Shown here piece by piece: positions 1 through 12,267 of a stretch of DNA of 32,276 nucleotides. The notes beneath the pieces were generated by a model. It searched no databases. It was not told the DNA's origin and saw nothing but the letters and a program-made list of their open reading frames with translations. The DNA lies in the IMG/VR virus record IMGVR_UViG_2703718849_000002, positions 1 to 32,276 of that record, one strand, 5' to 3'. How positions within the stretch are numbered: position 1 is the stretch's first letter; each line of letters begins with the position of its first letter. This DNA comes from a virus. Its lineage: Duplodnaviria > Heunggongvirae > Uroviricota > Caudoviricetes. Both the position numbers and the translations under genes were made by a program.

Positions 1-151
1 TCTCCTGTCAGTTAGCTTTGGTTGTGTGTGGGAGTCGTAGTCCTGAACGAAAACACCCCGCAATGGCACATTGGCAGCTAATCCGGATTCGCACTTCCTG
101 CCAATGCTTCGTTTCGTATCACACACACCAAAGCCTTCTGCTTTGAATGCT

Positions 152-182
152 GCCCTTCTTCAGGGCTTAATTTTTAAGAGCA
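152..182 (-). promoter_or_regulatory. nutL: nutL N-utilisation site: boxB hairpin (152-166, minus strand reads GCCCTGAAGAAGGGC) and boxA-like element (174-182)
   Basis: Minus strand of 1-200 matches the remembered lambda nutL/N-leader; SD ACAGGAGA lies at the very window edge, so the N start codon is just outside. Confidence 0.7.
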
Positions 183-222
183 TCACCTTCATGGTGGTTA
201 GTGCGTCCTGCTGATGGCTTAA

Positions 223-263
223 AATATACCTATAGGTAAAACTGCTGTCTATACCTGCAGGTA
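223..263 (-). promoter_or_regulatory. pL promoter with OL operators (palindromes TACCTATAGGTA 227-238 and TACCTGCAGGTA 252-263; candidate -10 TATATT at 223-228 and -35 TAGACA at 246-251 on minus strand)
   Basis: Repeated 12-bp palindromes of the form TACCTnnAGGTA, the same motif repeated at OR; promoter hexamers with 17-bp spacing overlapping the first operator. Confidence 0.55.
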
Positions 264-325
264 AATAAAATTGATGTGAGAGTTTACCTGCTTGAATTTT
301 CAGGTAATTAATTTTTTGGATTGAT

Positions 326-349
326 ATAAAAAAGCCCGCTTTGCGGGCT
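326..349 (-). terminator. Rho-independent terminator ending the cI operon (lambda t-imm analogue)
   Basis: GC stem AGCCCGC/GCGGGCT followed on the minus strand by a U-run, immediately after the stop of the 361-675 ORF. Confidence 0.7.
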
Positions 350-360
350 GAAAGGAGATG

Positions 361-675
361 TCAGAAGCTATTTGGATTGCTTGGCCATTGCGGCAATTTT
401 GATTCTACTGGGGTGTGTTTGGGTTTGAGTCCGTTTAAGTAGTCGAGGCGCTCAATGGCGCATTTATACATAGCAATCTGCTCTGATGACATGTCGTCGT
501 ATGACATGCCTTTGAACTTTTTAATTATCGATTCTGCCTCATGTATAAGGTGCTTCTTCCTCATGAGTTCAGCTGTATGCTTAGAGCTTACAGGAGATAA
601 CTTTGCCCATATGAAGCAGATGATTACAACAGCGACTACTATGCCGGGTATAAACATTTGCTGCTTTATCCTCAA
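361..675 (-). CDS. Hypothetical small membrane protein (one N-terminal transmembrane helix) co-transcribed with cI; sits where lambda has rexAB
   Basis: 104-aa ORF whose start overlaps the cI stop by 4 nt; hydrophobic stretch IPGIVVAVVIICFIWA; no family recognised. Confidence 0.6.
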   Translation of the reverse strand: MRIKQQMFIPGIVVAVVIICFIWAKLSPVSSKHTAELMRKKHLIHEAESIIKKFKGMSYDDMSSEQIAMYKCAIERLDYLNGLKPKHTPVESKLPQWPSNPNSF

Positions 676-1358
676 ACTTTTGGCAGATCGTCCTGGTCTA
701 CGTACCTGGTGTGTTTCACAATAGCTGAAACAAAATGCATTTTATCAACTTCTTCAACAGGAAGAGTGATTGGGCGGTGATCACTGTTTATGCTACTAAA
801 CTGATAATCACCGTCTCTTGTTTTGTTCATGATCTTTATCATGTTGTGACCGTCTTTGGTCCTTACAAAGACTTCATCACCTGGATGTACTGGCGTATTT
901 GGTTCAATAACAACATATTCTCCTGACTGAATCCTTGGCCACATGCTGTCACCCTTAACCTTCAGACCGTAAGCATCTTTATCGCCGCTGTAGATGCTTA
1001 ACCAACCGGATCTGAATTCAATCATATCCACTGAGCCATCAACTCCCAAAACGGCTTCACCAATTACCGGAACAAAACCCGCACGAACGTTACCCGCAAA
1101 CTCAAGATGGTCTGTAGCTCCAGCTTTACCATCTACAAGCATGTCCATCCATCCGCGTGGGAGATTAAAAGATTTTTCAATTAGTTCCATCATATCGTCA
1201 GCAATGCGTTTTTTTCCGCTTTTTCCTTCCGGATACAGCATTCTGGAAACGTATGATGGTTCCCTTTCTATTCGACGAGCCAACTCTGAGGCCTTTCCAT
1301 TACAGAATCGGTCTCTTATCTCTATCAGCCTTAGTCGTCTTTGTTCGTATTTATCCAT
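672..1358 (-). CDS. cI: cI-like prophage repressor (N-terminal HTH, C-terminal LexA/S24 self-cleaving peptidase domain)
   Basis: 228 aa; GDSM serine motif and downstream lysine typical of the LexA/cI S24 family; divergent from cro across an operator region. Confidence 0.85.
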   Translation of the reverse strand: MDKYEQRRLRLIEIRDRFCNGKASELARRIEREPSYVSRMLYPEGKSGKKRIADDMMELIEKSFNLPRGWMDMLVDGKAGATDHLEFAGNVRAGFVPVIGEAVLGVDGSVDMIEFRSGWLSIYSGDKDAYGLKVKGDSMWPRIQSGEYVVIEPNTPVHPGDEVFVRTKDGHNMIKIMNKTRDGDYQFSSINSDHRPITLPVEEVDKMHFVSAIVKHTRYVDQDDLPKV

Positions 1359-1378
1359 GATTTAATTCTATCTTTGAT

Positions 1379-1434
1379 TACCTGCCGGTAAATAACCTAT
1401 GGGTATTGATTTGCTTTTTACCTACAGGTAAACT
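1379..1434 (+). promoter_or_regulatory. OR operator region with three TACCTnnAGGTA-type sites (1379-1390, 1394-1405, 1419-1430) and PR (-35 TTGATT 1406-1411, -10 TAAACT 1429-1434)
   Basis: Three spaced palindromes between divergent cI and cro; promoter hexamers with 17-bp spacer overlapping the cro-proximal operator. Confidence 0.65.
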
Positions 1435-1466
1435 CACCTTATTCAACAACGGGAAGGAGATAGCAA

Positions 1467-1697
1467 ATGGAAGAACTCCGCTTGTATCTGAACTCCCTTT
1501 CACTGGAAGAGCAGAGAGAATTTGCCACCAAGTGCGGAACTTCTATCGGCTATTTGAGGAAAGCACTTAGCCGTAATCATGAATTGGGCGCAGCACTTTG
1601 TGTTCTGATTGAGAAGTTCAGCAATGGTGAAGTGACTCGCAAAGACCTTCATCCGGTTGATTGGGAAAGCATCTGGCCTGAATTAATGGCCGCTTAA
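1467..1697 (+). CDS. cro: Cro-like HTH regulator (YdaS/Cro family)
   Basis: 76 aa, first gene of the rightward operon from PR, good SD (GGAAGGAGA), HTH-like segment. Confidence 0.65.
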   Translation: MEELRLYLNSLSLEEQREFATKCGTSIGYLRKALSRNHELGAALCVLIEKFSNGEVTRKDLHPVDWESIWPELMAA

Positions 1698-1705
1698 GTT
1701 ATTAA

Positions 1706-1737
1706 CGCTCTTACACATCCCCGCCCTGAAAAAGGGC
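1706..1737 (+). promoter_or_regulatory. nutR: nutR: boxA (CGCTCTTAC, 1706-1714) and boxB hairpin (GCCCTGAAAAAGGGC, 1723-1737)
   Basis: Lambda-type boxA/boxB between cro and cII. Confidence 0.7.
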
Positions 1738-1813
1738 ATTACCAGAAACAAATCTCTATGGTTTTGCGTTTCTTTGCGAAGCCAACTCTATCTAATCATT
1801 AAGGAAATTATCT

Positions 1814-2095
1814 ATGGGTACTATTGCAACTAAAAGCAAGAAAGCGGCTCGCATCGAGTCAGCCTTGCTGAACAAACTGGCACTGATGGGGCAGAAGACA
1901 TTCGCTCGCGCGATGGGGGTTCCGGAATACCAGGTAAGCCGATGGAAGAATGGTTTCTTCTCGCAGGTAAGCATGATGCTGGCTGTTCTGGAATACGGAA
2001 TCGAAGACGATGAAATGGCTGAATTGACTAAGCGGCTTGCCGATTACCTGACAAAAGAAAAAGCCCCGAAGAACGGCGAATTCTTCGAGGCCTGA
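1814..2095 (+). CDS. cII: cII-like transcriptional activator of lysogeny
   Basis: 93 aa; ALRIESALLNK, QISRWK and SMLLAVLEWG-type motifs closely resemble lambda CII as remembered. Confidence 0.85.
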   Translation: MGTIATKSKKAARIESALLNKLALMGQKTFARAMGVPEYQVSRWKNGFFSQVSMMLAVLEYGIEDDEMAELTKRLADYLTKEKAPKNGEFFEA

Positions 2096-2129
2096 TGTAG
2101 AAAGACTGGATCAATCCACAGGAGTAATT

Positions 2130-2291
2130 ATGACAAAACGTAGTAAGAAATACCAGGAAAAAGAAGAGATTCGACCCCCTGATTCACCTGAGGGATTAGT
2201 GGTAGCCGCAGCAAATAACAGGGCGTTCGCAGAGCGCCTTGTTGGTGTTTACAGACTAGCCAAAGCAGGAGTGAAACATGGGCGTCGTTAA
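2130..2291 (+). CDS. Possible small basic protein (53 aa) between cII and the O gene
   Basis: ATG with SD (CAGGAGTAATT); overlaps the upstream candidate O start by 14 nt; not in the supplied track (under 60 aa). Confidence 0.3.
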   Translation: MTKRSKKYQEKEEIRPPDSPEGLVVAAANNRAFAERLVGVYRLAKAGVKHGRR

Positions 2292-3168
2292 GTTAGCTGA
2301 TTACAGGCATAACCCTGTACAACATCAGGAGGCATCCAGTATGGGGTATGTCTCTATACACCGCCAGTTTATGGACAGCAGGCTCTATAAGGACTCTCAG
2401 GCAGTACATCTTTGGCTTCACTTAATCCTCAAGGCTAATCACGAATCTACTGTCGTCAATACGGATATCGGTCCGATAACTGTTGATCGCGGTCAGATGA
2501 TAACTGGACGCCCGTCGCTGGTCAGAGAAACATTCATCCCCGACAACAAAGTTCGGAGCTTATTACGGACTTTTGAGTCGAAAGGGATGCTTAATATTTG
2601 CTCGATGGGGAAGAAATTTAGCCTGTTTACAATCGTTAAATATGACGATTTTCAGGCAAAAAATTGTCCAACGGTTGTCCAACGGTTGTCCAACGCAAAC
2701 ACCAGTAATGGCGCGGCTCTCAGCGGAGATTGTCCAACGGTTGTCCAACGGTTGTCCATAAACAATAATATAAATAATATCTCTAATACTGACGTATTAG
2801 AGAGTGCCACAGCAGACAAAAAGTCTGACAAGAAAAAACCTTCCGTTAGCTGTCAGGATGTTGTCGATGCTTACCACGAAATCCTTCCTGAAGCGCCAAG
2901 AATCCGCGCACTGAATGACAAGCGTAAAAACCAGATCCGAACGTTCTGGCGCAAAGCCGGAGTGATAACCCGACAGCTTGACGGGCATGGTTTTACGATG
3001 CAGGACTGGAGAAATTATTTGAGCTACGTAGGCGAAAATTGCCGATGGATGTTCGAAGAGCGTCCAAACCATCAACGCGGAACTGTCTGGCACAAAAAGG
3101 GATTTGATTTCCTGCTTAACGATAATACCTACCTGAAAGTTCGTGAGGGTGAACACGATGACCGATAA
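2278..3168 (+). CDS. O: Replication initiator protein (lambda O / P22 gene 18 analogue) containing the origin iterons; alternative start at 2341 has a perfect AGGAGG SD
   Basis: Position after cII; tandem iterons inside the coding sequence produce the CPTVVQRLSN protein repeats; followed by the helicase gene. Confidence 0.8.
   Translation: MGVVKLADYRHNPVQHQEASSMGYVSIHRQFMDSRLYKDSQAVHLWLHLILKANHESTVVNTDIGPITVDRGQMITGRPSLVRETFIPDNKVRSLLRTFESKGMLNICSMGKKFSLFTIVKYDDFQAKNCPTVVQRLSNANTSNGAALSGDCPTVVQRLSINNNINNISNTDVLESATADKKSDKKKPSVSCQDVVDAYHEILPEAPRIRALNDKRKNQIRTFWRKAGVITRQLDGHGFTMQDWRNYLSYVGENCRWMFEERPNHQRGTVWHKKGFDFLLNDNTYLKVREGEHDDR
2664..2759. repeat. Replication origin: two clusters of 11-bp direct repeats TTGTCCAACGG (3 copies at 2664-2695, 2-3 copies at 2730-2759) followed by an AT-rich stretch (2760-2800)
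   Basis: Read directly; same architecture as lambda ori (iterons inside O followed by an AT-rich unwinding element). Confidence 0.8.
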
Positions 3169-4594
3169 TTTTTATGCGCCGCCCCATAGCATCGAGGCAG
3201 AGCAGGCGGTGATTGGTGGATTGCTTCTGGATGATGACAGCAGTGAGCGCGTCCAGAAAGTTCTGGCGATGCTGAAGCCCGATTCATTTTACAGCCGACC
3301 ACACAAAATCCTTTTCGAAGAGATAACCAGAATGCACCGGGAGCAAAAGCCAGTAGATGGCCTGACGCTTTTCGATGAACTGGAGCGTAAATCGTTAACG
3401 GCGTCTGTTGGCGGTTTTGCTTATATCGCTGAGATCGCAAAGAACACGCCAAGCGCCGCAAACATCGTTGCCTATGCAATGCAGGTTCGCGAAACCGCAA
3501 TGGAACGCTACGCCATCAACCGCATGACTGAAGCGACGGAATTGCTCTATTCCCGCAACGGAATGACTGCAACGCAGAAGTACGAAGCTATTCAGGCGAT
3601 TTTCACGCAACTGACAGACCATGCAAAAACCGGATCGCGTCGCGGCCTTCGCTCATTTGGCGAGGTCATGGAAGACTGGGTTAGCGACCTTGAGAAGCGA
3701 TTTGACCCGTCAGGCGAACAGCGAGGAATGAGCACAGGCATCCCATCGCTGGACAGGATGCTGTCACCGAAAGGTCTGGTGAAAGGCTCTCTGTTTGTCA
3801 TTGGCGCTCGCCCTAAGATGGGGAAAACGACGCTATACAGCCAGATGGCAATCAACTGCGCAGTGCATGAGAAAAAGCCCGCTCTGATGTTCAGCCTTGA
3901 AATGCCAGGTGACCAGATACTGGAAAAACTGGTAGGGCAGAAGTCAGGTGTTAACCCGAATATTTTTTACCTTCCGGCGACAAATGACTCTGATGACGGC
4001 TATCAGGGTGATTACGATGGTGACTTCAACAGGGCGATCGAAACAGCCAATCGCTTGAGTGAAATCGACATGCTTTACATCGACGACACGCCGGGATTAT
4101 CTCTGGCTCAAATCGTCAGCGAAAGCCGTCGAATCAAGCGAGAAAAAGGATGTGTTGGCATGATTCTGGTCGATTACCTGACACTAATGACCGCTGAAAA
4201 GGCCGATCGCAACGACCTTGCTTACGGCATGATCACCAAAGGACTGAAGAACCTTGCCAAAGAGCTTGATTGCGTTGTTGTGCTTCTGACACAGCTTAAC
4301 CGCGCACTGGAAAGCCGAACCAATAAACGCCCATTACCAAGTGACTCACGAGATACAGGGCAGATTGAACAGGATTGCGATTATTGGGTGGGGATCCATC
4401 GTGAAGGTGCTTTTGATGACAGCGTTCCTCCTGGTGAAACCGAACTAATCCTTCGCCTCAATCGTCATGGCAATACCGGAACGGTGTATTGCATTCAGGC
4501 AAATGGCGCTATTTATGACACAGACCAACAGTCTGCTGAAATGCGCCGCCGTGAACGTGAGGAACCGCAGTCCAAGAAGAAAGGAGGATTCTGA
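3158..4594 (+). CDS. DnaB-family replicative helicase (P22 gene 12 type)
   Basis: Walker A GARPKMGKTT and DnaB-like N-terminal and RecA-like motifs; start taken at ATG 3158 (SD GAGGG), overlapping the O stop. Confidence 0.9.
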   Translation: MTDNFYAPPHSIEAEQAVIGGLLLDDDSSERVQKVLAMLKPDSFYSRPHKILFEEITRMHREQKPVDGLTLFDELERKSLTASVGGFAYIAEIAKNTPSAANIVAYAMQVRETAMERYAINRMTEATELLYSRNGMTATQKYEAIQAIFTQLTDHAKTGSRRGLRSFGEVMEDWVSDLEKRFDPSGEQRGMSTGIPSLDRMLSPKGLVKGSLFVIGARPKMGKTTLYSQMAINCAVHEKKPALMFSLEMPGDQILEKLVGQKSGVNPNIFYLPATNDSDDGYQGDYDGDFNRAIETANRLSEIDMLYIDDTPGLSLAQIVSESRRIKREKGCVGMILVDYLTLMTAEKADRNDLAYGMITKGLKNLAKELDCVVVLLTQLNRALESRTNKRPLPSDSRDTGQIEQDCDYWVGIHREGAFDDSVPPGETELILRLNRHGNTGTVYCIQANGAIYDTDQQSAEMRRREREEPQSKKKGGF

Positions 4595-4622
4595 TGACCA
4601 TCTACATCACTGAGCTAATAAC

Positions 4623-4655
4623 AGGCCTGCTGGTAATCGCAGGCCTTTTTATTTG
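4623..4655 (+). terminator. Rho-independent terminator after the helicase gene (tR2 analogue)
   Basis: 8-bp stem AGGCCTGC/GCAGGCCT with 8-nt loop, followed by TTTTTATTT. Confidence 0.7.
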
Positions 4656-4669
4656 GGGGAGAGTAAATC

Positions 4670-4876
4670 GTGGCTGAGTTTATGCTCGTCGCACTCAAAT
4701 GCGTTGGCGTTGGATGGATTCTTCTGACGTTTTTTATTGTTCTGCATAGCTACATTCGTCTTGTGAATGACGGTAAAGACCCATGGTATACGTTGTTTGG
4801 CGCTGCATTTGTCTGGGTGATTATCGGTGTTATGCCTGTCGCTGTAGCAAAAATGGCGTGGCGTTTTGTGAGTTGA
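4670..4876 (+). CDS. Hypothetical small membrane protein (two predicted TM helices); start is GTG 4670 or ATG 4682
   Basis: 68-aa ORF with two hydrophobic segments; SD GGAGAG upstream of the GTG. Confidence 0.5.
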   Translation: MAEFMLVALKCVGVGWILLTFFIVLHSYIRLVNDGKDPWYTLFGAAFVWVIIGVMPVAVAKMAWRFVS

Positions 4877-4893
4877 ACTGAGGGTAAGTATCG

Positions 4894-5208
4894 ATGGACG
4901 AATCAAGAAAGCAGTTTGAGGAATACGTTGCCAAAAAATTGAGATTACCATTCGAGATGATAACCGAGGCAAGAAATGGTGATAGGTACTTTGCATTTTC
5001 AAGCATGGATATTCGTCACTCCTTAAATGAGTGGTGGGCTTTATGGCAGGCATCGCGAGCAGCTATTGAAATAACCGCGCCAAAGTTTATCGACAGCAGA
5101 GAAGCATTAGCCAAAGGGTTTACTGTTGATTATTCCAATGGCTTCTGTGATGCAATGGATGCTTATGAGGAAAACATCCGCGCTGCTGGAGTCAAAGTGA
5201 AGGAGTGA
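4894..5208 (+). CDS. Hypothetical phage protein (104 aa)
   Basis: ORF with SD GAGGG, closely packed after the preceding ORF. Confidence 0.55.
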   Translation: MDESRKQFEEYVAKKLRLPFEMITEARNGDRYFAFSSMDIRHSLNEWWALWQASRAAIEITAPKFIDSREALAKGFTVDYSNGFCDAMDAYEENIRAAGVKVKE

Positions 5209-5210
5209 GT

Positions 5211-5375
5211 ATGAGCGCATACGAAGAAATCATGTTAGCCCTGCGATTCTTTTTCGGTGTGGAAGAAGATGAAAACGTAAATGAGATTATCTGGCAAGAC
5301 CATGACCCGATAGGGACTATTGCAGCTGCACTTGACGATTACAGGAGCGTAAGTGGTGAGGAAACTAACGTTTGA
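5211..5375 (+). CDS. Possible small acidic protein (54 aa)
   Basis: ATG 3 nt after the previous stop with SD AGGAG; overlaps the ninB start by 23 nt; not in the supplied track. Confidence 0.35.
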   Translation: MSAYEEIMLALRFFFGVEEDENVNEIIWQDHDPIGTIAAALDDYRSVSGEETNV

Positions 5376-5796
5376 ACTAAGAAGCCCCATCCATCAGCAG
5401 AACGCCATTCAAGCCATCCAGCAAATTCTTCCAGACCCAACCAAACCAATCGTAGTAACCATTCAGGAACGCAATCGCAGCTTAGACCAGAATCGAAAGC
5501 TTTGGGCTTGCCTTGGTGACGTCTCTCGTCAGGTTGAATGGCATGGTCGCTGGCTGGATGCAGAAAGCTGGAAGTGTGTGTTTACCGCAGCATTAAAGCA
5601 GCAGGACGTTGTTCCTAACCTTGCCGGGAATGGCTTTGTGGTAATAGGCCAGTCAACCAGCAGGATGCGTGTAAGCGAATTTGCGGAGCTATTAGAGCTT
5701 ATACAGGCATTCGGTACAGAGCGTGGCGTTAAGTGGTCAGACGAAGCGCGACTGGCTCTCGAATGGAAAGCGCGATGGGGAGACCGGGCAGCATGA
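5353..5796 (+). CDS. ninB: NinB (Orf) recombination mediator protein
   Basis: Near-identical over most of its length to lambda NinB as remembered (…[42 protein letters not shown]…). Confidence 0.9.
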
Positions 5797-5966
5797 TGCG
5801 ATGTGATCGGTGCGGTGAATGCAAAGAAGATAACCGCTTCAGACCAAATCAACCTTACTGGAATCGATGGTGTCTCCGGTGTGAAAGAACACCAACAGGA
5901 GTTTTACCACTACCGCAGGAAAAGGAGGACGTATGGCGAGACAGCGACGAAGTATCACCGACATAA
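5793..5966 (+). CDS. ninD: NinD-like small zinc-finger protein
   Basis: 57 aa from the ATGA overlap with the ninB stop; CxxC…CxxC pattern ([10 protein letters not shown] … CLRCE). Confidence 0.65.
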
Positions 5967-6109
5967 TCTGTGAAAACTGCAAATACCTTCCAACGAAACG
6001 CTCCAGAAATAAACGCAAGCCAATCCCAAAAGAATCTGACGTAAAAACCTTCAACTACACGGCTCACCTGTGGGATATCCGGTGGCTAAGACATCGTGCG
6101 AGGAAATGA
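5933..6109 (+). CDS. ninE: NinE protein
   Basis: 58 aa, [52 protein letters not shown] matches lambda NinE as remembered; not in the supplied track. Confidence 0.8.
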
Positions 6110-6111
6110 CA

Positions 6112-6495
6112 ATGGATTATTCACAGTTAAGTGATTTTGAAATTAACGTGGCAGTATTCGAAGCCATTCATAACGGATCACCGGATTACAAAGAAGGTGA
6201 GAATGGCGATATGGTGTTTATCTCATTTGAGGGAGACATTGTAAACGGAGACGCAGTTGAAGTAGAGGTTGAGCGCGGATCCTTTAACCCATGCGCAAAC
6301 CCAGCAGACGCATGGCCGATTATCACTGAAAACAACATCAGCATAATTTTAGACAATCCCTCAATGCCGTGCGCCACAGACAACGCAAGGGACTTGTTTG
6401 ATGATGCCGGACCGAATGTTGGTGTCGCATATGACAATCCACTCCGTGCCGCCATGATTGTCTTTCTCATGATGCAGGACGCTAATAATGCTTAG
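6112..6495 (+). CDS. NinX-like protein (DUF2591-type)
   Basis: Start chosen at MDYSQLSDFEIN directly after the ninE stop; position as in P22-type nin regions; family assignment from memory only. Confidence 0.5.
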   Translation: MDYSQLSDFEINVAVFEAIHNGSPDYKEGENGDMVFISFEGDIVNGDAVEVEVERGSFNPCANPADAWPIITENNISIILDNPSMPCATDNARDLFDDAGPNVGVAYDNPLRAAMIVFLMMQDANNA

Positions 6496-6664
6496 CCCAT
6501 CCCAATCCCTCCAATACCAGAAAGAAAGCGTCGAGCGGGCTTTAACGTGCGCTAACTGCGGTCAGAAGCTGCATGTGCTGGAAGTTCACGTGTGTGAGCA
6601 CTGCTGCGCAGAGCTGATGAGTGATCCGAATAGCTCAATGTACGAGGAAGAAGACGATGAATGA
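6488..6664 (+). CDS. ninF: NinF protein
   Basis: 58 aa, MLSPSQSLQYQKESVERALTCANCGQKLHVLEVHVCEHCCAELMSD matches lambda NinF as remembered; not in the supplied track. Confidence 0.8.
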   Translation: MLSPSQSLQYQKESVERALTCANCGQKLHVLEVHVCEHCCAELMSDPNSSMYEEEDDE

Positions 6665-7379
6665 GTTAATAAATGGCAATGCCATCAAAATGACAAGCAT
6701 TGAAATCGCTGAGTTGGTGGGTAAGCGTCATGACAATGTGAAACGTACCATCGAAACGCTGGCTAAAAATGGTGTTATCCGGCTTCCTCAAATTGAGGTT
6801 TCCGAAAGAATCAATAACTTAGGGTTCAATGTTCAGTACGAGCATTACGTCTTCGAAGGCGAACAAGGCAAGCGAGATAGTATTGTTGTTGTTGCCCAGT
6901 TGTCGCCAGAGTTCACCGCTCGCCTTGTTGACCGCTGGCGAGATCTTGAAGAAGCTGCGGTTAATATCCCCAAAACGCTACCGGAAGCGTTGCGCCTTGC
7001 TGCTGATCTTGCCGAGAAGAAAATGCAACTGGAAAACCAGCTCGCAATTGCCGCACCTAAAGTTGAGTTTGCCGATCGCGTTGGCGAGGCCAGCGGAATT
7101 TTGATTGGAAACTTTGCAAAGGTTGTTGGAATTGGTCCAAACAAACTGTTTGCGTGGATGCGCGATCACAAAATCCTTATTGCTTCAGGTTCCCGGCGCA
7201 ATGTGCCAATGCAGGAATATATGGATCGCGGCTATTTCACAGTGAAAGAAACAGCGGTCAACACAAATCACGGGATACAGATATCGTTCACCACAAAAAT
7301 CACCGGGCGTGGTCAACAGTGGCTGACCAGAAAGCTGCTCGATAACGGAATGCTGAAAGTAACAGGGGAGGCTGCTTAA
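6657..7379 (+). CDS. Phage antirepressor / regulatory protein (Rha-like N-terminal domain with KilA-C/Ant-type C-terminal domain)
   Basis: Start taken at MNELINGNAIK (6657); domain pattern recalled from Rha/Ant family proteins. Confidence 0.6.
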   Translation: MNELINGNAIKMTSIEIAELVGKRHDNVKRTIETLAKNGVIRLPQIEVSERINNLGFNVQYEHYVFEGEQGKRDSIVVVAQLSPEFTARLVDRWRDLEEAAVNIPKTLPEALRLAADLAEKKMQLENQLAIAAPKVEFADRVGEASGILIGNFAKVVGIGPNKLFAWMRDHKILIASGSRRNVPMQEYMDRGYFTVKETAVNTNHGIQISFTTKITGRGQQWLTRKLLDNGMLKVTGEAA

Positions 7380-7669
7380 TGGCTAATCTACGCAAAGAAG
7401 CACGCGGCAGAGAATGCCAGGTACGTATTTACGGCGTATGCAATGGCAATCCTGAAACTACAGTTCTGGCACATTACCGGATGGCTGGAATTTGCGGAAC
7501 GGGAATGAAGCCTGACGACCTGATCGGCGCATGGGCTTGTAGCGCGTGTCACGATGAAATCGACCGACGCACCCATAATCTCGACAACAAAGACGCCAGA
7601 CTTTACCACCTCGAAGGCGTGATCAGGACGCAGGCGATACTGTTGAAGGAGGGGAAGATTAAGCCATGA
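7379..7669 (+). CDS. YbcO-like protein (DUF1364; putative nuclease with Cys-rich metal site)
   Basis: 96 aa; ARGRECQVRIYGVCNGNPETTVLAH…CSACHDEIDRR closely resembles E. coli DLP12 YbcO as remembered. Confidence 0.7.
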   Translation: MANLRKEARGRECQVRIYGVCNGNPETTVLAHYRMAGICGTGMKPDDLIGAWACSACHDEIDRRTHNLDNKDARLYHLEGVIRTQAILLKEGKIKP

Positions 7670-8028
7670 ACGAATATCAGTTTGTGCTTCCATACCCGCC
7701 GTCGGTGAATACCTACTGGCGAAGACGGGGAAGTCAATACTACATCAGCGATAAAGGCCAGAAATACCGAAAAGACGTTCAGCAAATCATCCGCCAACTT
7801 AAGTTAGACATTTTCACCAAATCACGACTCCGCATCAAAGTCATCGCAGACGTTCCAGACTCCCGCCGCCGCGACCTCGATAACATCCTGAAAGGTTTAC
7901 TCGACTCACTTATCCACGCCGGATTTGCGGAAGACGACGAGCAATTCGATGACATTCGCGTAATTCGTGGCGTGAAAGTACCAGGCGGAAGGCTTGGAAT
8001 AAAAATCACCGAACTGGAGAACGCATGA
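7666..8028 (+). CDS. rusA: RusA Holliday-junction resolvase
   Basis: 120 aa; PPSVNTYW…RRRDLDN…GGRL motifs of the RusA family. Confidence 0.85.
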   Translation: MNEYQFVLPYPPSVNTYWRRRGSQYYISDKGQKYRKDVQQIIRQLKLDIFTKSRLRIKVIADVPDSRRRDLDNILKGLLDSLIHAGFAEDDEQFDDIRVIRGVKVPGGRLGIKITELENA

Positions 8029-8213
8029 ACGCCACAATTCAAACGATACCAGAGCTTCTTATCCAGACACGAGGCAATCAGACCGAAGTGGCAAAGATGC
8101 TTTCCTGCGCAAGAGGAACAGTGCTCAAGTACAACCGAGACGGCAAAGGCGAGCGTCATGTAATAGTTAACGGCGTCCTGATGGTCAAACAGGGCAAGAG
8201 GGGAAGACGATGA
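8025..8213 (+). CDS. ninH: NinH-like protein
   Basis: 62 aa; GNQTEVAKML…RGTV…NGVLMV resembles lambda NinH; immediately upstream of Q. Confidence 0.7.
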   Translation: MNATIQTIPELLIQTRGNQTEVAKMLSCARGTVLKYNRDGKGERHVIVNGVLMVKQGKRGRR

Positions 8214-8833
8214 GACTCGAAAGCGTAGCTAAATTTCATTCTCCAAAAAGCCCGATGATGAGCGACTCACCACGGGCCACGGCTTCTGACTCTCTTTCCG
8301 GTACTGATGTGATGGCTGCTATGGGGATGGCGCAATCACAAGCCGGATTCGGAATGGCTGCATTCTGCGGTAAGCATGAACTCAGCCAGAACGACAAACA
8401 AAAGGCTATCAACTATCTGATGCAATTTGCACACAAGGTATCGGGGAAATACCGTGGCGTTGCAAAGCTTGAAGGAAATACTAAGGCAAAGGTACTGCAA
8501 GTACTCGCAACATTCGCTTATGCGGATTATTGCCGTAGTGCCGCGACGCCGGGCGCAAGATGCAGAGATTGCCACGGTACAGGTCGTGCGGTTGATATAG
8601 CAAAAACAGAGCAGTGGGGGAGAGTTGTTGAGAAAGAATGCGGAAGATGCAAAGGCGTCGGCTATTCAAGGATGCCAGCAAGCGCCGCATATCGCGCTGT
8701 AACGATGCTAATCCCAAATCTTACTCAACCCACCTGGTCACGCACTGTTAAGCCGCTGTATGACGCTCTGGTGGTGCAATGCCACAAAGAAGAGTCAATC
8801 GCAGACAACATTTTGAATGCGGTCACACGTTAG
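8210..8833 (+). CDS. Q: Late-gene antiterminator Q (lambda type)
   Basis: 207 aa, matches lambda Q as remembered along its length including the Cys4 zinc-binding region. Confidence 0.9.
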   Translation: MRLESVAKFHSPKSPMMSDSPRATASDSLSGTDVMAAMGMAQSQAGFGMAAFCGKHELSQNDKQKAINYLMQFAHKVSGKYRGVAKLEGNTKAKVLQVLATFAYADYCRSAATPGARCRDCHGTGRAVDIAKTEQWGRVVEKECGRCKGVGYSRMPASAAYRAVTMLIPNLTQPTWSRTVKPLYDALVVQCHKEESIADNILNAVTR

Positions 8834-8875
8834 CAGCATGATTGCCACGGATGGCAACATATTAACGGCATGATA

Positions 8876-8911
8876 TTGACTTTTTGAATAAAGTTGGGTA
8901 AATTTGACTCA
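8876..8911 (+). promoter_or_regulatory. Late promoter pR-prime with qut site (-35 TTGACT 8876-8881, -10 TAAATT 8899-8904)
   Basis: Sequence matches the lambda pR-prime/qut region as remembered, directly downstream of Q. Confidence 0.75.
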
Positions 8912-8940
8912 ACGATGGATAAATGCACTCGTTAAATAAA

Positions 8941-8969
8941 GCCCTGAGTTAATAGCTCGGGGCTTTTTG
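8941..8969 (+). terminator. tR-prime rho-independent terminator (target of Q antitermination); implies a short, roughly 60-nt, 6S-like leader RNA
   Basis: Stem GCCCTGAG/CTCGGGGC with U-run, about 30 nt downstream of the predicted pR-prime start. Confidence 0.7.
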
Positions 8970-9266
8970 CGTTTTAAGCACGGCCTTTCTGAAAGCACAT
9001 CAAACCAAATACCAGACAGACCAAAATAATCACCTTATCCGCTGTGGTTACGGTGCGGTGTGCTTTGCATAAAAGAAAACCAGCTCAATGGCTGGCTTCG
9101 TGAAATCGGGTGGCAGGAGGTTGCGCTAACAACCTCATGCCGTTTTGCCCGTGCATATCGGTCACGAACAAATCTGATTACTAAACACAGTAGCCTGGAT
9201 TTGTTCTATCAGTAATCGACCTTATTCCTAATTAAATAGAGCAAATCCCCTTATTGGGGGTAAGAC

Positions 9267-9590
9267 ATGAAGATGCCAGAAAAACATGACCTGTTAGCCG
9301 CCATTCTCGCGGCAAAGGAACAAGGCATCGGGGCAATCCTTGCGTTTGCAATGGCGTACCTTCGCGGCAGATATAATGGCGGTGCGTTTACAAAAACAGT
9401 AATCGACGCAACGATGTGCGCCATTATCGCCTGGTTCATTCGTGACCTTCTCGACTTCGCCGGACTAAGTAGCAATCTCGCTTATATAACGAGCGTGTTC
9501 ATCGGCTACATCGGTACTGACTCGATTGGTTCGCTTATCAAACGCTTCGCTGCTAAAAAAGCCGGAGTAGAAGATGGTGGAAATCAATAA
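9267..9590 (+). CDS. S: Class I holin S (dual-start Met1-Lys2-Met3 holin/antiholin)
   Basis: 107 aa, essentially lambda S105/S107 as remembered; ATGAAGATG dual start. Confidence 0.9.
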
Positions 9591-10050
9591 TCAACGTAAG
9601 GCGTTCCTCGATATGCTGGCGTGGTCAGAGGGAACTGATAACGGACGGCAGAAAACCAGAAATCATGGTTATGACGTCATTGTTGGCGGAGAGCTATTCA
9701 CTGATTACTCCGATCACCCTCGCAAACTTGTCACGCTAAACCCCAAACTCAAATCAACAGCAGCCGGACGTTACCAGCTTCTTTCCCGTTGGTGGGATGC
9801 CTATCGTAAGCAGCTTGGCCTGAAAGACTTCTCTCCGAAAAGCCAGGACGCTGTGGCACTGCAACAGATTAAAGAGCGTGGCGCTTTACCGATGATTGAT
9901 CGCGGTGATATCCGTCAGGCAATCGACCGTTGCAGCAATATCTGGGCTTCACTGCCGGGGGCTGGTTATGGTCAGTTCGAGCATAAGGCTGACAGCCTGA
10001 TTGCAAAATTCAAAGAAGCAGGCGGAACGGTCAGAGAGATTGAGGTATGA
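9574..10050 (+). CDS. R: Endolysin R (lytic transglycosylase, lambda type)
   Basis: 158 aa, matches lambda R as remembered. Confidence 0.9.
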
Positions 10051-10505
10051 GCAGAGTAGCCGCGATTATCTCCGCTCTGGTTATCTGCATCATCGTCTGC
10101 CTGTCATGGGCTGTTAATCATTACCGTGATAACGCAATCGCCTACAAAGAGCAGCGCGATAACAAGGCCAGTGAACTGGAGAAGGCGAACGCCACCATCG
10201 CTGACATGCGGAAGCGTCAACGTGATGTAGCAGAACTCGACGCAAGATACACAAAGGAGCTTGCTGATGCTAACGCGACTATCGAAAGTCTCCGTGCTGA
10301 TGTTTCTGCTGGGCGTAAGCGCCTGCAAGTCGCCGCCACCTGTGCAAAGTCAACGACCGGAGCCAGCGGCATGGGCGATGGAGAAAGCCCAGGACTTACA
10401 GCAGATGCTGAACTCAATTATTACCGTCTCCGAAGTGGAATCGACAGGATAACCGCGCAGGTTAACTACTTGCAGGAATACATCAGGACGCAATGCCTTC
10501 GATGA
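10047..10505 (+). CDS. Rz: Rz i-spanin (inner-membrane component)
   Basis: 152 aa, N-terminal TM helix and coiled coil; lambda Rz-like. Confidence 0.85.
10261..10452 (+). CDS. Rz1: Rz1 o-spanin lipoprotein, embedded in the +1 frame of Rz
   Basis: Signal peptide with lipobox (LLGVSAC) followed by a Pro-rich mature region; fully nested in Rz. Confidence 0.75.
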
Positions 10506-10678
10506 TAGCGATAATTTTACTCATCATCCTTCACATCTGGCTCTGTAGACAGGATGGTGATCACTTCTGGAGTGAATCCAGATTAAACATCTCATTGCTG
10601 ATGCTTGATATTGAGCATCTTGCGCGCGGTAAGGGGCTGCGTTGAGATAAGAGCCAGTCATTACAAATACTAGGATTT

Positions 10679-10704
10679 AGCCTCGCATTTGCGGGGCTTT
10701 TTTA
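10679..10704 (+). terminator. Rho-independent terminator downstream of the lysis cassette
   Basis: Stem AGCCTCGC/GCGGGGCT with 4-nt loop followed by TTTTTT. Confidence 0.6.
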
Positions 10705-10848
10705 CATCTGCAGTAAACCGCGCATCGCAGCGCGTAACAATCCCGAGTCTTTCAGAAAGCTGAGCCTGAGAACTGCCGTATATGGTGGCGACCATCTCGG
10801 GGCGGCTTTTCTGTGCGAACAGGCTCATCTTTCTAAAAGGTAAACGCT

Positions 10849-11334
10849 ATGAATAACTTTGTTGAAATTACCTCAAGAATTGGTCGCATGTACCAAGATT
10901 TTCTTATAAGTGGAAAGGGGTCTGGCGACATCATAGAGGAAATTGACAAGCTAAGTGCAGAGCTGAGAAGGAATGGGTGTGTTAATTCTATCTTTTTTGA
11001 AACTTTGCTAAAGCAAGGCTTCATGTTTGACATGATTAATTACAACAAAGTCGCACCCAGTGCTTCGCAAAAATCATATGTGTACGTTCTGCATGCTGAA
11101 GATAGTGGGCTAACAAAAATAGGGTTTAGTCGCAGGGTTAATAAACGGATTTCAGAGATATCTCGCATGAGTGGTGGGAAGCTAAATCTAATTGCAAAGA
11201 TTCCGGCCGATAGAGAGCTTGAAACCAAATTGCACCAAAAATATTACAACTATAGGTCGCACGGGGAGTGGTTTAGTCTCAATCGTTGTCATTTGAAAGA
11301 GCTAAAAGAAATGCCTGGTAACGAACTGAAATAA
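10849..11334 (+). CDS. Moron gene: T5orf172/MUG113-type GIY-YIG-like domain protein (C-terminal half) with an N-terminal domain of unknown function
   Basis: 161 aa; C-terminal SYVYVL…KIGFSRR…RISE…H…EWF pattern typical of T5orf172 domains; visibly lower G+C than neighbours; flanked by non-coding DNA. Confidence 0.6.
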   Translation: MNNFVEITSRIGRMYQDFLISGKGSGDIIEEIDKLSAELRRNGCVNSIFFETLLKQGFMFDMINYNKVAPSASQKSYVYVLHAEDSGLTKIGFSRRVNKRISEISRMSGGKLNLIAKIPADRELETKLHQKYYNYRSHGEWFSLNRCHLKELKEMPGNELK

Positions 11335-11581
11335 TCCCCGGACTCACCAATTAACGGCAGTACCGCGAAACAACCCAAGCCAGTAAGTGGGGAAATAACA
11401 CTGGCAGCCACTGAAAGATGAACCTCCTGCCTTATGGCAAAAAAGATTCTTTGTGGTGGCGGACTGATGGAAAGACATCGGTTATTGCAGAGGCCATTCA
11501 ATGAGTGGTCTCGACAATGGCTTATACCCTACACGGGATAACTTAACTGATATCCCTTTTAACGGATAAACGGAGCCAACA

Positions 11582-11824
11582 ATGGCAGAGATTATTCCCA
11601 TGACTGAAGAACAGAAATTCCAGTTAGAGATTTACAAGCTGGTCATGAACCAGAACGCAGCCGCAGAGGAAGCATTTCAGTTCATTGGCACTGACGAACT
11701 GAAGCTTGAGCTATTCAAAATTCACTTCCAGTCAGGCGGCGCTAATTCAGATATCACGATCCGCACATTTGAAGCGGTACGTAAATCGAAGGAAGCGTTA
11801 GACCTGTTCACCACCGGAGCATAA
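11582..11824 (+). CDS. Hypothetical small protein immediately upstream of terS
   Basis: 80-aa ORF with SD (ACGGAGCC), ends 2 nt before the terS ATG. Confidence 0.5.
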   Translation: MAEIIPMTEEQKFQLEIYKLVMNQNAAAEEAFQFIGTDELKLELFKIHFQSGGANSDITIRTFEAVRKSKEALDLFTTGA

Positions 11825-11826
11825 AC

Positions 11827-12267
11827 ATGGCGCGCCCAACAAAGTATCAAGAGGCGTATGCCGAACAGGCACGCAAACTGTGCTTGCTGGGCTACACCGA
11901 TGCAGAGCTTGCTGATTTCTTCGAAGTTAGTGAGTCAACTATTAACAAGTGGAAGCTTGATTATCCTAAGTTTTCGGAGTCCGTAAAAAAGGGTAAGGCC
12001 GTCGCTGATGCAGAAGTTAGTGATCGTCTTTATCAACGCGCTATGGGCTTCGTGGCTCCAGACATCGATATTCGTGTTATTGAAAACAGAATTGTCGAAA
12101 CTCCGCTTGAGAAGTATTACCCGCCTGATACAACAGCTGCCATCTTCTGGCTTAAGAACCGACAGAAGGATAAATGGCGCGACAAGGTTGATCACGAGCT
12201 AACAGGCAAAGACGGCGGCGCAATTCAGATTGAAACATCACCGATGAGCACTCTATTCGGAAAATGA
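11827..12267 (+). CDS. terS: Terminase small subunit (Sf6 gp1-like, headful/pac type)
   Basis: 146 aa; C-terminal GKDGGAIQIETSPMSTLFGK matches the Sf6 small terminase as remembered; HTH-like N-terminal segment. Confidence 0.75.
   Translation: MARPTKYQEAYAEQARKLCLLGYTDAELADFFEVSESTINKWKLDYPKFSESVKKGKAVADAEVSDRLYQRAMGFVAPDIDIRVIENRIVETPLEKYYPPDTTAAIFWLKNRQKDKWRDKVDHELTGKDGGAIQIETSPMSTLFGK

Follow-up and report, generated by a model that had tools for sequence, protein, structure and literature searches.

What occupies the stretch where the replication genes of lambdoid prophages meet the nin region, and what might the genes there do? We address this question with one such junction (positions 4594 to 5375) in an IMG/VR virus record, IMGVR_UViG_2703718849_000002, all 32,276 nucleotides (nt) of which—the window—were analyzed. 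Judged by nucleotide similarity, the window is an Escherichia coli contig with an Sf6/HK620-like prophage (P22-like, Lederbergvirus-type, lambdoid). Between its DnaB-like helicase gene and ninB stand a terminator and three small open reading frames (ORFs), here called ORF1, ORF2, and ORF3 (Table 1). This region is very probably the replication/nin-region junction of a P22-like lambdoid prophage, lying in its early-right (pR) operon, with a block containing the terminator tR2 followed by optional cassettes and with delayed-early expression gated by N antitermination. Conservation patterns show that ORF1–3 are genuine protein-coding genes, carried in optional, interchangeable cassettes between tR2 and ninB. 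The existence of both the tR2 junction and the three genes, catalogued as hypothetical, was already known.

Three Protein-Coding Genes between tR2 and ninB

Are three frames this short really genes? A first-pass annotation of this DNA had reported the helicase, a terminator, three small ORFs, and ninB in close succession. We found each of these at the coordinates it gave, and the tight packing it described holds: ORF1 overlaps by 8 nt a mini-ORF, NinA, that runs through the terminator; gaps of 17 and 2 nt separate ORF1 from ORF2 and ORF2 from ORF3; and ORF3 overlaps ninB by 20 to 23 nt. That the ORFs are real genes is borne out by full-length matches to PHROG families, by conservation of the frames, and by the pattern of variation across codon positions. 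The ratio of nonsynonymous to synonymous change (dN/dS) lies between 0.16 and 0.75. Constraint is strongest on ORF3 (dN/dS 0.16 to 0.35, and 0.16 to 0.18 where the proportion of synonymous differences, pS, exceeds 0.1); the values are 0.33 to 0.63 for ORF1 (with 0.43 between its two classes and 0.22 in the first transmembrane [TM] helix) and 0.36 to 0.75 for ORF2 (a range raised by nonhomologous inner segments). The third codon position is the most variable in all three ORFs; for ORF3, its entropy is 0.745 vs. 0.25 to 0.30 at positions 1 and 2. The length of ORF1 is 68 amino acids (aa) in 102 of 103 loci, including those of a second class at 51 to 56% identity, and the anchor residues of ORF2 are kept as amino acids through two to four synonymous codons per site. 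Each start is preceded by a Shine–Dalgarno sequence: GGAG 8 nt upstream of the GTG of ORF1, GAGGG 9 nt upstream of the ATG of ORF2, and AAGGAG 5 nt upstream of the ATG of ORF3 at 5211, which also has an in-frame GTG at 5205. A 134-aa antisense ORF (4649 to 5053, minus strand) over ORF1 and part of ORF2 was considered and rejected as a conserved gene, since its length varies between 40 and 144 aa among the relatives.

The first-pass annotation had recognized none of the three. They in fact fall in PHROGs 1165, 343, and 1603, and RefSeq, mEp235, HK022, and Sf6 list them or their relatives as hypothetical proteins. These three PHROGs, together with PHROG 5907, to which NinA belongs, are all labeled as being of unknown function.

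A Variable Slot for Interchangeable Cassettes

How constant is the content of this junction? We surveyed 120 viral contigs, picked by an exact 33-nt tR2 core alone, of which 113 had ninB within reach. In 59 of the 113 loci ninB follows tR2 directly, as in lambda and P22; the others hold 200 to 1,280 bp of varied small genes in between. Members of the ORF1 family, when in the slot, always begin right after tR2; roughly three in four of the tR2-bearing loci lack them. Slot occupants include the ORF2 and ORF1 families, Sf6 gp46, gp47, and gp49, a DUF4752 protein, a 63-aa two-TM protein, and a Lar-family protein. The cassette itself is found behind three unrelated replication modules: the DnaB-like helicase, lambda-type P plus ren (H-19B), and a toprim primase (E. 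coli MS 198-1 and AF46).

Several of these occupants are small membrane proteins. Sf6 gp46, in the first position, has an N-terminal TM anchor, and the DUF4752 protein, with an N-terminal TM segment, holds the first position in two loci (offset 46); neither is homologous to ORF1. The 63-aa two-TM protein (MSMSRRSSFLGFVIF...) was seen in six loci, about 490 to 590 nt past the tR2 core, and shows no homology to ORF1 (hhalign probability 0.3%). Two of those six loci (L196 and L210) also have a 60-aa, very hydrophobic ORF at an offset of about 782, again not homologous to ORF1.

Directly before ninB, in the position of ORF3, some relatives carry an 80-aa restriction-alleviation protein of the Lar family (PF14354, E 1.9e-10, above threshold). 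The Lar-family gene was seen in six loci (L155, L187, and L204 and also L144, L161, and L173), with its start 280 to 676 nt beyond the tR2 core, on the strand of tR2. Its C terminus, ASQRSNQK, matches the extension of 62-aa Salmonella variants of ORF3; because this ending is common to both, the Lar-family and Salmonella ORF3 genes overlap the same type of ninB.

Compared with its relatives, the window has mosaic joints at 4594, ~4677, 4876/4894, 5212, and 5357, which are gene borders. One other IMG/VR contig is arranged identically, with 98.8% of its nucleotides the same. Neither the GenBank phages nor the complete E. coli genomes searched contained the exact combination of helicase, class A ORF1, ORF2 variant, ORF3, and lambda-type ninB; coverage in a single place peaked at 90% (one E. 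coli genome) and, for phages, at 74%. The junction is ordinary phage mosaicism and no new kind of element.

The Terminator tR2 and Its Boundary Block

What marks the left border of the slot? The first-pass annotation had called a strong terminator at 4623 to 4655. The terminator is present (4623 to 4654), with nothing novel about it: by its sequence it is the textbook tR2 of phage lambda, a standard model terminator. The window is 100% identical to lambda NC_001416 over the tR2 hairpin and its flanks, and the 33-nt core matches lambda tR2 exactly, once in the window vs. zero times expected by chance. The stem-loop (4623 to 4646) has an 8-bp stem with six G-C pairs and an 8-nt loop and is followed by the T-run; its predicted RNA folding energy is −16.8 kcal/mol. 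A generic terminator scan is weak evidence when taken alone, because its three sites are not enriched over the 4.2 expected in shuffled sequences; identity to lambda tR2 is what decides. A second terminator-like hairpin with a T-run, inside ORF1 (4706 to 4731), has three G-C pairs, with G-T pairs counted, and was found by the same scan at the shuffle level, so that it is probably due to chance.

The terminator belongs to a block of ~95 bp, from ATGACCATCTACAT to GGGGGAGAG, that is identical or nearly so in the window, lambda, HK620, Sf6, H-19B, and an E. coli prophage; HK022 has it in common only from the hairpin rightward. No variation is seen in the hairpin, the T-run, or GGGGGAGAG among the seven aligned sequences (the six just named and HK022). 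Sequences are identical up to GGGGGAGAG and diverge right after it: the next gene is ninB in lambda and gp46 in Sf6, and the window, HK620, and H-19B all continue with ORF1. Because the phages diverge to the right of GGGGGAGAG, the block is a shared junction that provides a ribosome-binding sequence to whichever gene comes next. GenBank labels the block tR2 in HK620 and Sf6.

The NinA frame, missing from the first-pass annotation, runs through tR2, and its ATG overlaps the stop codon of the helicase gene (TGATG). Its counterparts are named ninA in HK620 and gene 45 in Sf6, where a note reads "bsq6 boundary sequence." The maximal in vivo termination efficiency of lambda tR2 is ~0.9; the NinA translation start has been described as "not weak," and tR2 retains most of its efficiency despite lying inside this short ORF (PMC4824070). 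A ribosome that terminates less than ~27 nt from the hairpin has been reported to suppress tR2 (PMC4824070). The helicase stop codon in the window stands 28 nt ahead of the first base of the hairpin. Because this is right at the suppression limit, translation of the upstream gene could modulate tR2 read-through here.

Probable Expression under N Antitermination

When would ORF1–3 be expressed? The nin region owes its name to the N-independent growth that results when its terminators are deleted, and pR is repressed in lysogens. The first-pass annotation had proposed that expression depends on N antitermination, which is upheld by three features: a lambda tR2, a nutR identical to that of lambda in the same operon, and the lack of a predicted internal promoter. 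The window has the same boxA and boxB sequences as the Nutr annotated in lambda NC_001416, and no sigma-70-like promoter was predicted in 4594 to 5375 by a simple consensus scan. The N gene itself would fall outside the window, which extends ~670 bp past the 3′ end of the repressor gene. N-dependent, delayed-early expression of ORF1–3 is well supported by sequence combined with lambda biology.

Under this arrangement, ORF1–3, with no promoter of their own and with pR under the control of the cI-like repressor, would be silent in the lysogen. After induction or infection, N loaded at nutR would take RNA polymerase through tR2, and ORF1–3 would be made as delayed-early proteins, with translation probably coupled along the tightly packed genes. 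Without N, a leak-through of ~10% past tR2 would be expected.

Prophage Context and Gene Order

The first 25 kb of the window are 97% identical to Shigella phage Sf6 across 74% of their length and 96% identical to HK620 across 66%. Gene order in the left part is cro–nutR–cII–O-like–helicase–tR2–ORF1–3–ninB, followed by more nin-type genes (Table 1). The helicase, the final gene ahead of the junction, is 99 to 100% identical to those of HK620, Sf6, and mEp235. The first-pass annotation had placed the cluster at the ren/ninA position of lambda, rightly, as lambda itself reads P–ren–tR2–ninB. The right border of the variable slot is ninB, for which RefSeq relatives use as start the GTG equivalent to 5356.

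Table 1. Features of the early-right region of the window around the tR2–ninB slot
Feature	Position	Strand	Description
cI-like repressor	672–1358	−	
cro	1467–1697	+	
nutR	1706–1737	+	boxA CGCTCTTA 1706–1713; boxB GCCCTGAAAAAGGGC 1723–1737; between cro and cII
cII	1814–2095	+	
O-like initiator	2278–3168	+	
DnaB-like replicative helicase (P-gene equivalent)	3143–4594	+	Pfam DnaB_C E 2.9e-60, DnaB E 3.4e-31
NinA mini-ORF	4594–4677	+	27 aa, hydrophobic, MTIYITELITGLLVIAGLFIWGRVNRG; phrog_5907 E 1.3e-18 (residues 1–26 of 27)
Intrinsic terminator tR2	4623–4654	+	stem AGGCCTGC / GCAGGCCT, loop TGGTAATC, T-run TTTTATTT
Shared ribosome-binding sequence	4655–4663	+	GGGGGAGAG; right end of the conserved block, from alignment
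ORF1, small membrane protein	4670–4876	+	GTG start, 68 aa, isoelectric point (pI) 9.0; phrog_1165 E 1.6e-39 (residues 1–68 of 68)
ORF2, soluble all-helical protein	4894–5208	+	104 aa, no hydrophobic segment, pI 5.25; phrog_343 E 8.7e-28
ORF3, very acidic protein	5211–5375	+	54 aa, 13 acidic and 2 basic residues, pI 4.05; phrog_1603 E 8.7e-31 (residues 1–53 of 54)
ninB (Orf-family recombination mediator)	5353/5356–5796	+	Pfam NinB E 2.4e-54; phrog_72

Properties of the Three Proteins

ORF1 has two hydrophobic segments, with Kyte–Doolittle 19-residue means above 1.6 for windows beginning at residues 1 to 14 and 39 to 46. The predicted TM helices span residues ~11 to 31 and 40 to 60 and are joined by a short loop, VNDGKDPW; a basic C-terminal tail, KMAWRFVS, follows. 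The protein would form a hairpin of two helices in the inner membrane, both termini inside (N-in/C-in), its short, neutral-to-acidic loop facing outward and its basic tail and the conserved end of the second helix at the cytoplasmic face. Invariant residues are K36 in the loop and I52, G53, P56, V57, A58, A60, K61, M62, A63, W64, and F66 in the second helix and tail. The last eight codons are also nearly identical in nucleotides (pS 0.12; proportion of nonsynonymous differences, pN, 0.11). We considered and rejected a class II holin or pinholin, given the early operon, a C-terminal tail of just eight residues with two basic charges, and no holin match in Pfam; ORF1 lies ~4.4 kb upstream of a block of small ORFs (9267 to 10505) that is the presumed site of the lysis genes.

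The ORF1 homologues form 61 clusters, from Escherichia or Salmonella only, and the exact protein is present on at least 999 contigs. Its DNA was found in 420 of 5,426 complete E. coli genomes (~8%), full length in 228, and is annotated throughout as encoding a hypothetical protein. The HK620 GenBank record (AF335538) has no annotation for a 96%-identical homologue between ninA and ninB, and in mEp235 the homologue, of the 56%-identity class, is annotated only as a 52-aa short form; RefSeq prophages use 68 aa.

ORF2 is modeled by AlphaFold2 as six helices, with a predicted local distance difference test score (pLDDT) of 74. In alignments, the anchors MDESRKQFE, W..WQASRAAIE, and IRAAGxKVKE surround two inner segments that look like swappable specificity segments, with intragenic mosaic joints at 4923 to 5044 and 5072 to 5176. 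Among relatives that are 98% identical on either side, E. coli AF46 and locus L005 are unrelated across residues ~11 to 50, and HK022 and Sf6 over the C-terminal third. The family is large, with 809 representatives after clustering at 50% identity (E ≤ 0.001), mostly stand-alone proteins of 85 to 105 aa; one 236-aa protein joins the N-terminal module of ORF2 to DUF551, itself without an assigned function. Nearly all of the 373 homologues listed have a precomputed match to PF26207, and a relative at 65% identity is named "phiTE_015 family protein" in RefSeq. Local copies of Pfam and NCBIfam, which lack the PF26207 model, gave no match for ORF2 or five of its homologues even at E ≤ 10.

ORF3 is modeled by AlphaFold2 as a three-helix bundle (pLDDT 82.7). 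Its homologues are fewer, with 24 clusters from Escherichia, Salmonella, and Cedecea; the exact protein is known from a single record, E. coli WP_187643007.1, and the DNA was found in 26 of the 5,426 complete E. coli genomes, again always annotated as encoding a hypothetical protein. In most of the 49 loci recovered through ORF3 homology, the gene adjoins and overlaps ninB, which is of two types, 99% and 43% identical to the NinB of the window. The C terminus, EETNV (5353 to 5375), is encoded by the 5′ end of ninB and is common to the unrelated Sf6 gp49 and HK022 gp60; ORF3 and Sf6 gp49 have it in common because both overlap the start of ninB. This tail comes about as a by-product of that recombination joint; its last residues are predicted to be disordered (pLDDT 49).

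Candidate Functions and Alternatives

What could these genes do? Searches of Pfam, NCBIfam, and PADLOC gave no significant match for ORF1–3. The hits below threshold were noise: T4SS_pilin for ORF1 (14.9 bits vs. a cutoff of 26.6), an antiporter subunit, and a PglX fragment for ORF3 (E 0.02); for ORF1 and ORF2, PADLOC returned no match whatever. Profile searches of Protein Data Bank sequences yielded nothing credible for any of the three, and Rfam found no RNA family in positions 1 to 12000. Literature searches on phiTE_015, PF26207, L0091 with 933W, the RefSeq accessions, and the mEp235 locus tags turned up no paper. Searches on the nin region, hot spots, and antidefense found nothing on the tR2–ninB slot, the Tai-system paper concerning other loci. 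In general, nin-region genes are nonessential, tightly packed, and mostly of unknown function (PMC8022706; PMC2629481).

Our tentative preference is that ORF1–3 are nonessential conflict genes of lytic growth that would act in counter-defense, host modulation, or early exclusion of competing phage. We lean toward this reading, to which we give somewhat less than even chances, because the slot is optional and rapidly reshuffled, a Lar homologue sits at the ORF3 position in relatives, the ren-annotated exclusion gene of lambda lies across tR2, and small membrane proteins recur in the first position. ORF1 might then bind a membrane-located target and ORF3 might be an acidic inhibitor, with ORF2 carrying a swappable specificity segment.

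Several points weigh against our overall account of the junction. No homology- or fold-based evidence gives any of the three a function, and it is position and analogy that suggest a role in conflict. The N step is itself deduced, since the N gene is not within the window, and the absence of a promoter comes from a simple consensus scan. Constraint on ORF1 and ORF2 is no more than moderate (dN/dS up to 0.6 to 0.75), and part of the conservation at their ends lies in the nucleotides, as in the ORF1 tail, for which recombination linkers would be as good an explanation as function. Furthermore, the slot survey was not dereplicated and covers only loci with the exact tR2 core.

A bolder version, which we regard as speculative and unlikely to hold in full, would make the tR2–ninB junction of lambdoid phages a dedicated, N-gated hot spot for counter-defense and competition genes, fired on lytic commitment. 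ORF1 and the membrane proteins that alternate with it would neutralize a membrane-acting abortive-infection or exclusion system or block the entry of rival DNA; ORF3 would be an acidic inhibitor at the Lar position, and the ORF2 segments would serve as target-specificity modules.

Could the cluster instead assist replication or recombination? ORF3 might be a partner or regulator of NinB (Orf), for example, to which its translation would be coupled, and ORF1 a membrane tether of replication or injection complexes. The cluster does lie between replication and recombination genes, and ORF3, the most constrained of the three (dN/dS 0.16 to 0.35), stands immediately upstream of and overlaps ninB in most of its 49 loci, across two NinB types. 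However, most lambdoid phages, lambda, P22, and HK620 among them, have ninB but no ORF3, and ORF3 DNA is confined to those 26 of 5,426 E. coli genomes. Unrelated genes (Sf6 gp49 and the Lar homologue) hold the same position before ninB, and ORF1, found behind three unrelated replication modules, is not tied to one replisome. We therefore judge such a helper role improbable.

The first-pass annotation had raised the idea that small membrane proteins here could be exclusion factors or toxin-like peptides. On this account ORF1, alone or with its neighbors, would be expressed in the lysogen and would block incoming phage or kill the infected cell. Many characterized prophage exclusion proteins and small toxins are indeed small membrane proteins (P22 SieA, HK97 gp15, and GhoT), as is the two-TM ORF1, whose family is common in E. 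coli prophages (420 of 5,426 complete genomes). Classical prophage exclusion and toxin–antitoxin genes, however, need to be expressed in the lysogen, which is disfavored here because ORF1–3 lie directly behind tR2 in a cI-repressed pR operon without a promoter of their own (no promoter-like site in 4594 to 5375). Nor did the idea gain anything from PADLOC, Pfam, or NCBIfam; the cluster has no antitoxin-like partner, and only about a quarter of tR2-bearing loci have ORF1. An exclusion factor or toxin expressed in the lysogen thus seems still less probable than a replication or recombination helper. Type I and type V toxins were rejected on the same absence of a promoter-like site, of an Rfam family in 1 to 12000, and of any match to toxin–antitoxin or defense models. 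An exclusion role early in the lytic cycle, by analogy with T4 Imm, is possible.

Least credible of all is that the ORFs are not genes but open frames tolerated in spacer DNA and conserved through recombination "boundary sequences": gene ends that are conserved in nucleotides and coincide with mosaic joints, the fairly high dN/dS of ORF1 and ORF2, and the missing ORF1 annotation in HK620 would fit such an origin, but an ORF1 length that stays at exactly 68 codons in 102 of 103 loci even where 44 to 49% of the amino acids differ, the variable third codon position of each frame, the two to four synonymous codons behind invariant ORF2 residues, the dN/dS of 0.16 to 0.18 for ORF3 at pS >0.1, the correctly spaced Shine–Dalgarno sequences, and, by contrast, the long antisense ORF that is not conserved all speak against it.

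Significance and Comparison with Known Systems

The ORF2 family comprises more than 800 clusters at 50% identity, and ORF1 DNA occurs in ~8% of complete E. coli genomes, yet no function, paper, or fold relative was found for any of the three proteins. As the slot elsewhere holds an antirestriction homologue, ORF1–3 are cheap, well-defined candidates for deletion and expression screens directed at counter-defense and early superinfection exclusion. Close relatives are available in the genetically tractable phages HK620, mEp235, and HK022.

How does the junction compare with systems already described? Ren and Lar, encoded in or beside this slot, are like ORF1–3 in being products of small, nonessential early genes. 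In lambda, the gene of a "Ren-like exclusion protein" stands immediately upstream of tR2, and in relatives the Lar family occupies the ORF3 position; ORF1–3, however, have no detectable homology to Ren or Lar, and ORF3 is without the zinc-ribbon motif CPFCG of Lar. Early in its lytic infection, phage T4 makes Imm, a small protein of the inner membrane that keeps the DNA of superinfecting phage from entering the cell. ORF1 resembles it as a small protein with predicted membrane helices that would be made early in the lytic program, a likeness that would be one of function only, ORF1 being from a temperate phage.

Closer parallels are found among lambdoid phages and prophages. The genes gp46–47 of mEp235, gp58–60 of HK022, gp46–49 of Sf6, and orf69–71 of Stx2-converting phage 86 belong to the same PHROG families as those of the window, in the same order and with the same packing. 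The RefSeq prophage proteins WP_000229810/WP_000229119, WP_000344572, and WP_001277269 likewise represent the same families in the same order; all of these phage and prophage members are annotated only as hypothetical proteins. Finally, the lambda tR2/ninA "boundary sequence" block, annotated in HK620, Sf6, and P22, has the same sequence, position, and overlapping 27-aa NinA ORF as that of the window. In lambda, the block comes after ren, and ninB is directly next, whereas in the window it comes after a DnaB-like helicase, and three extra genes are next.

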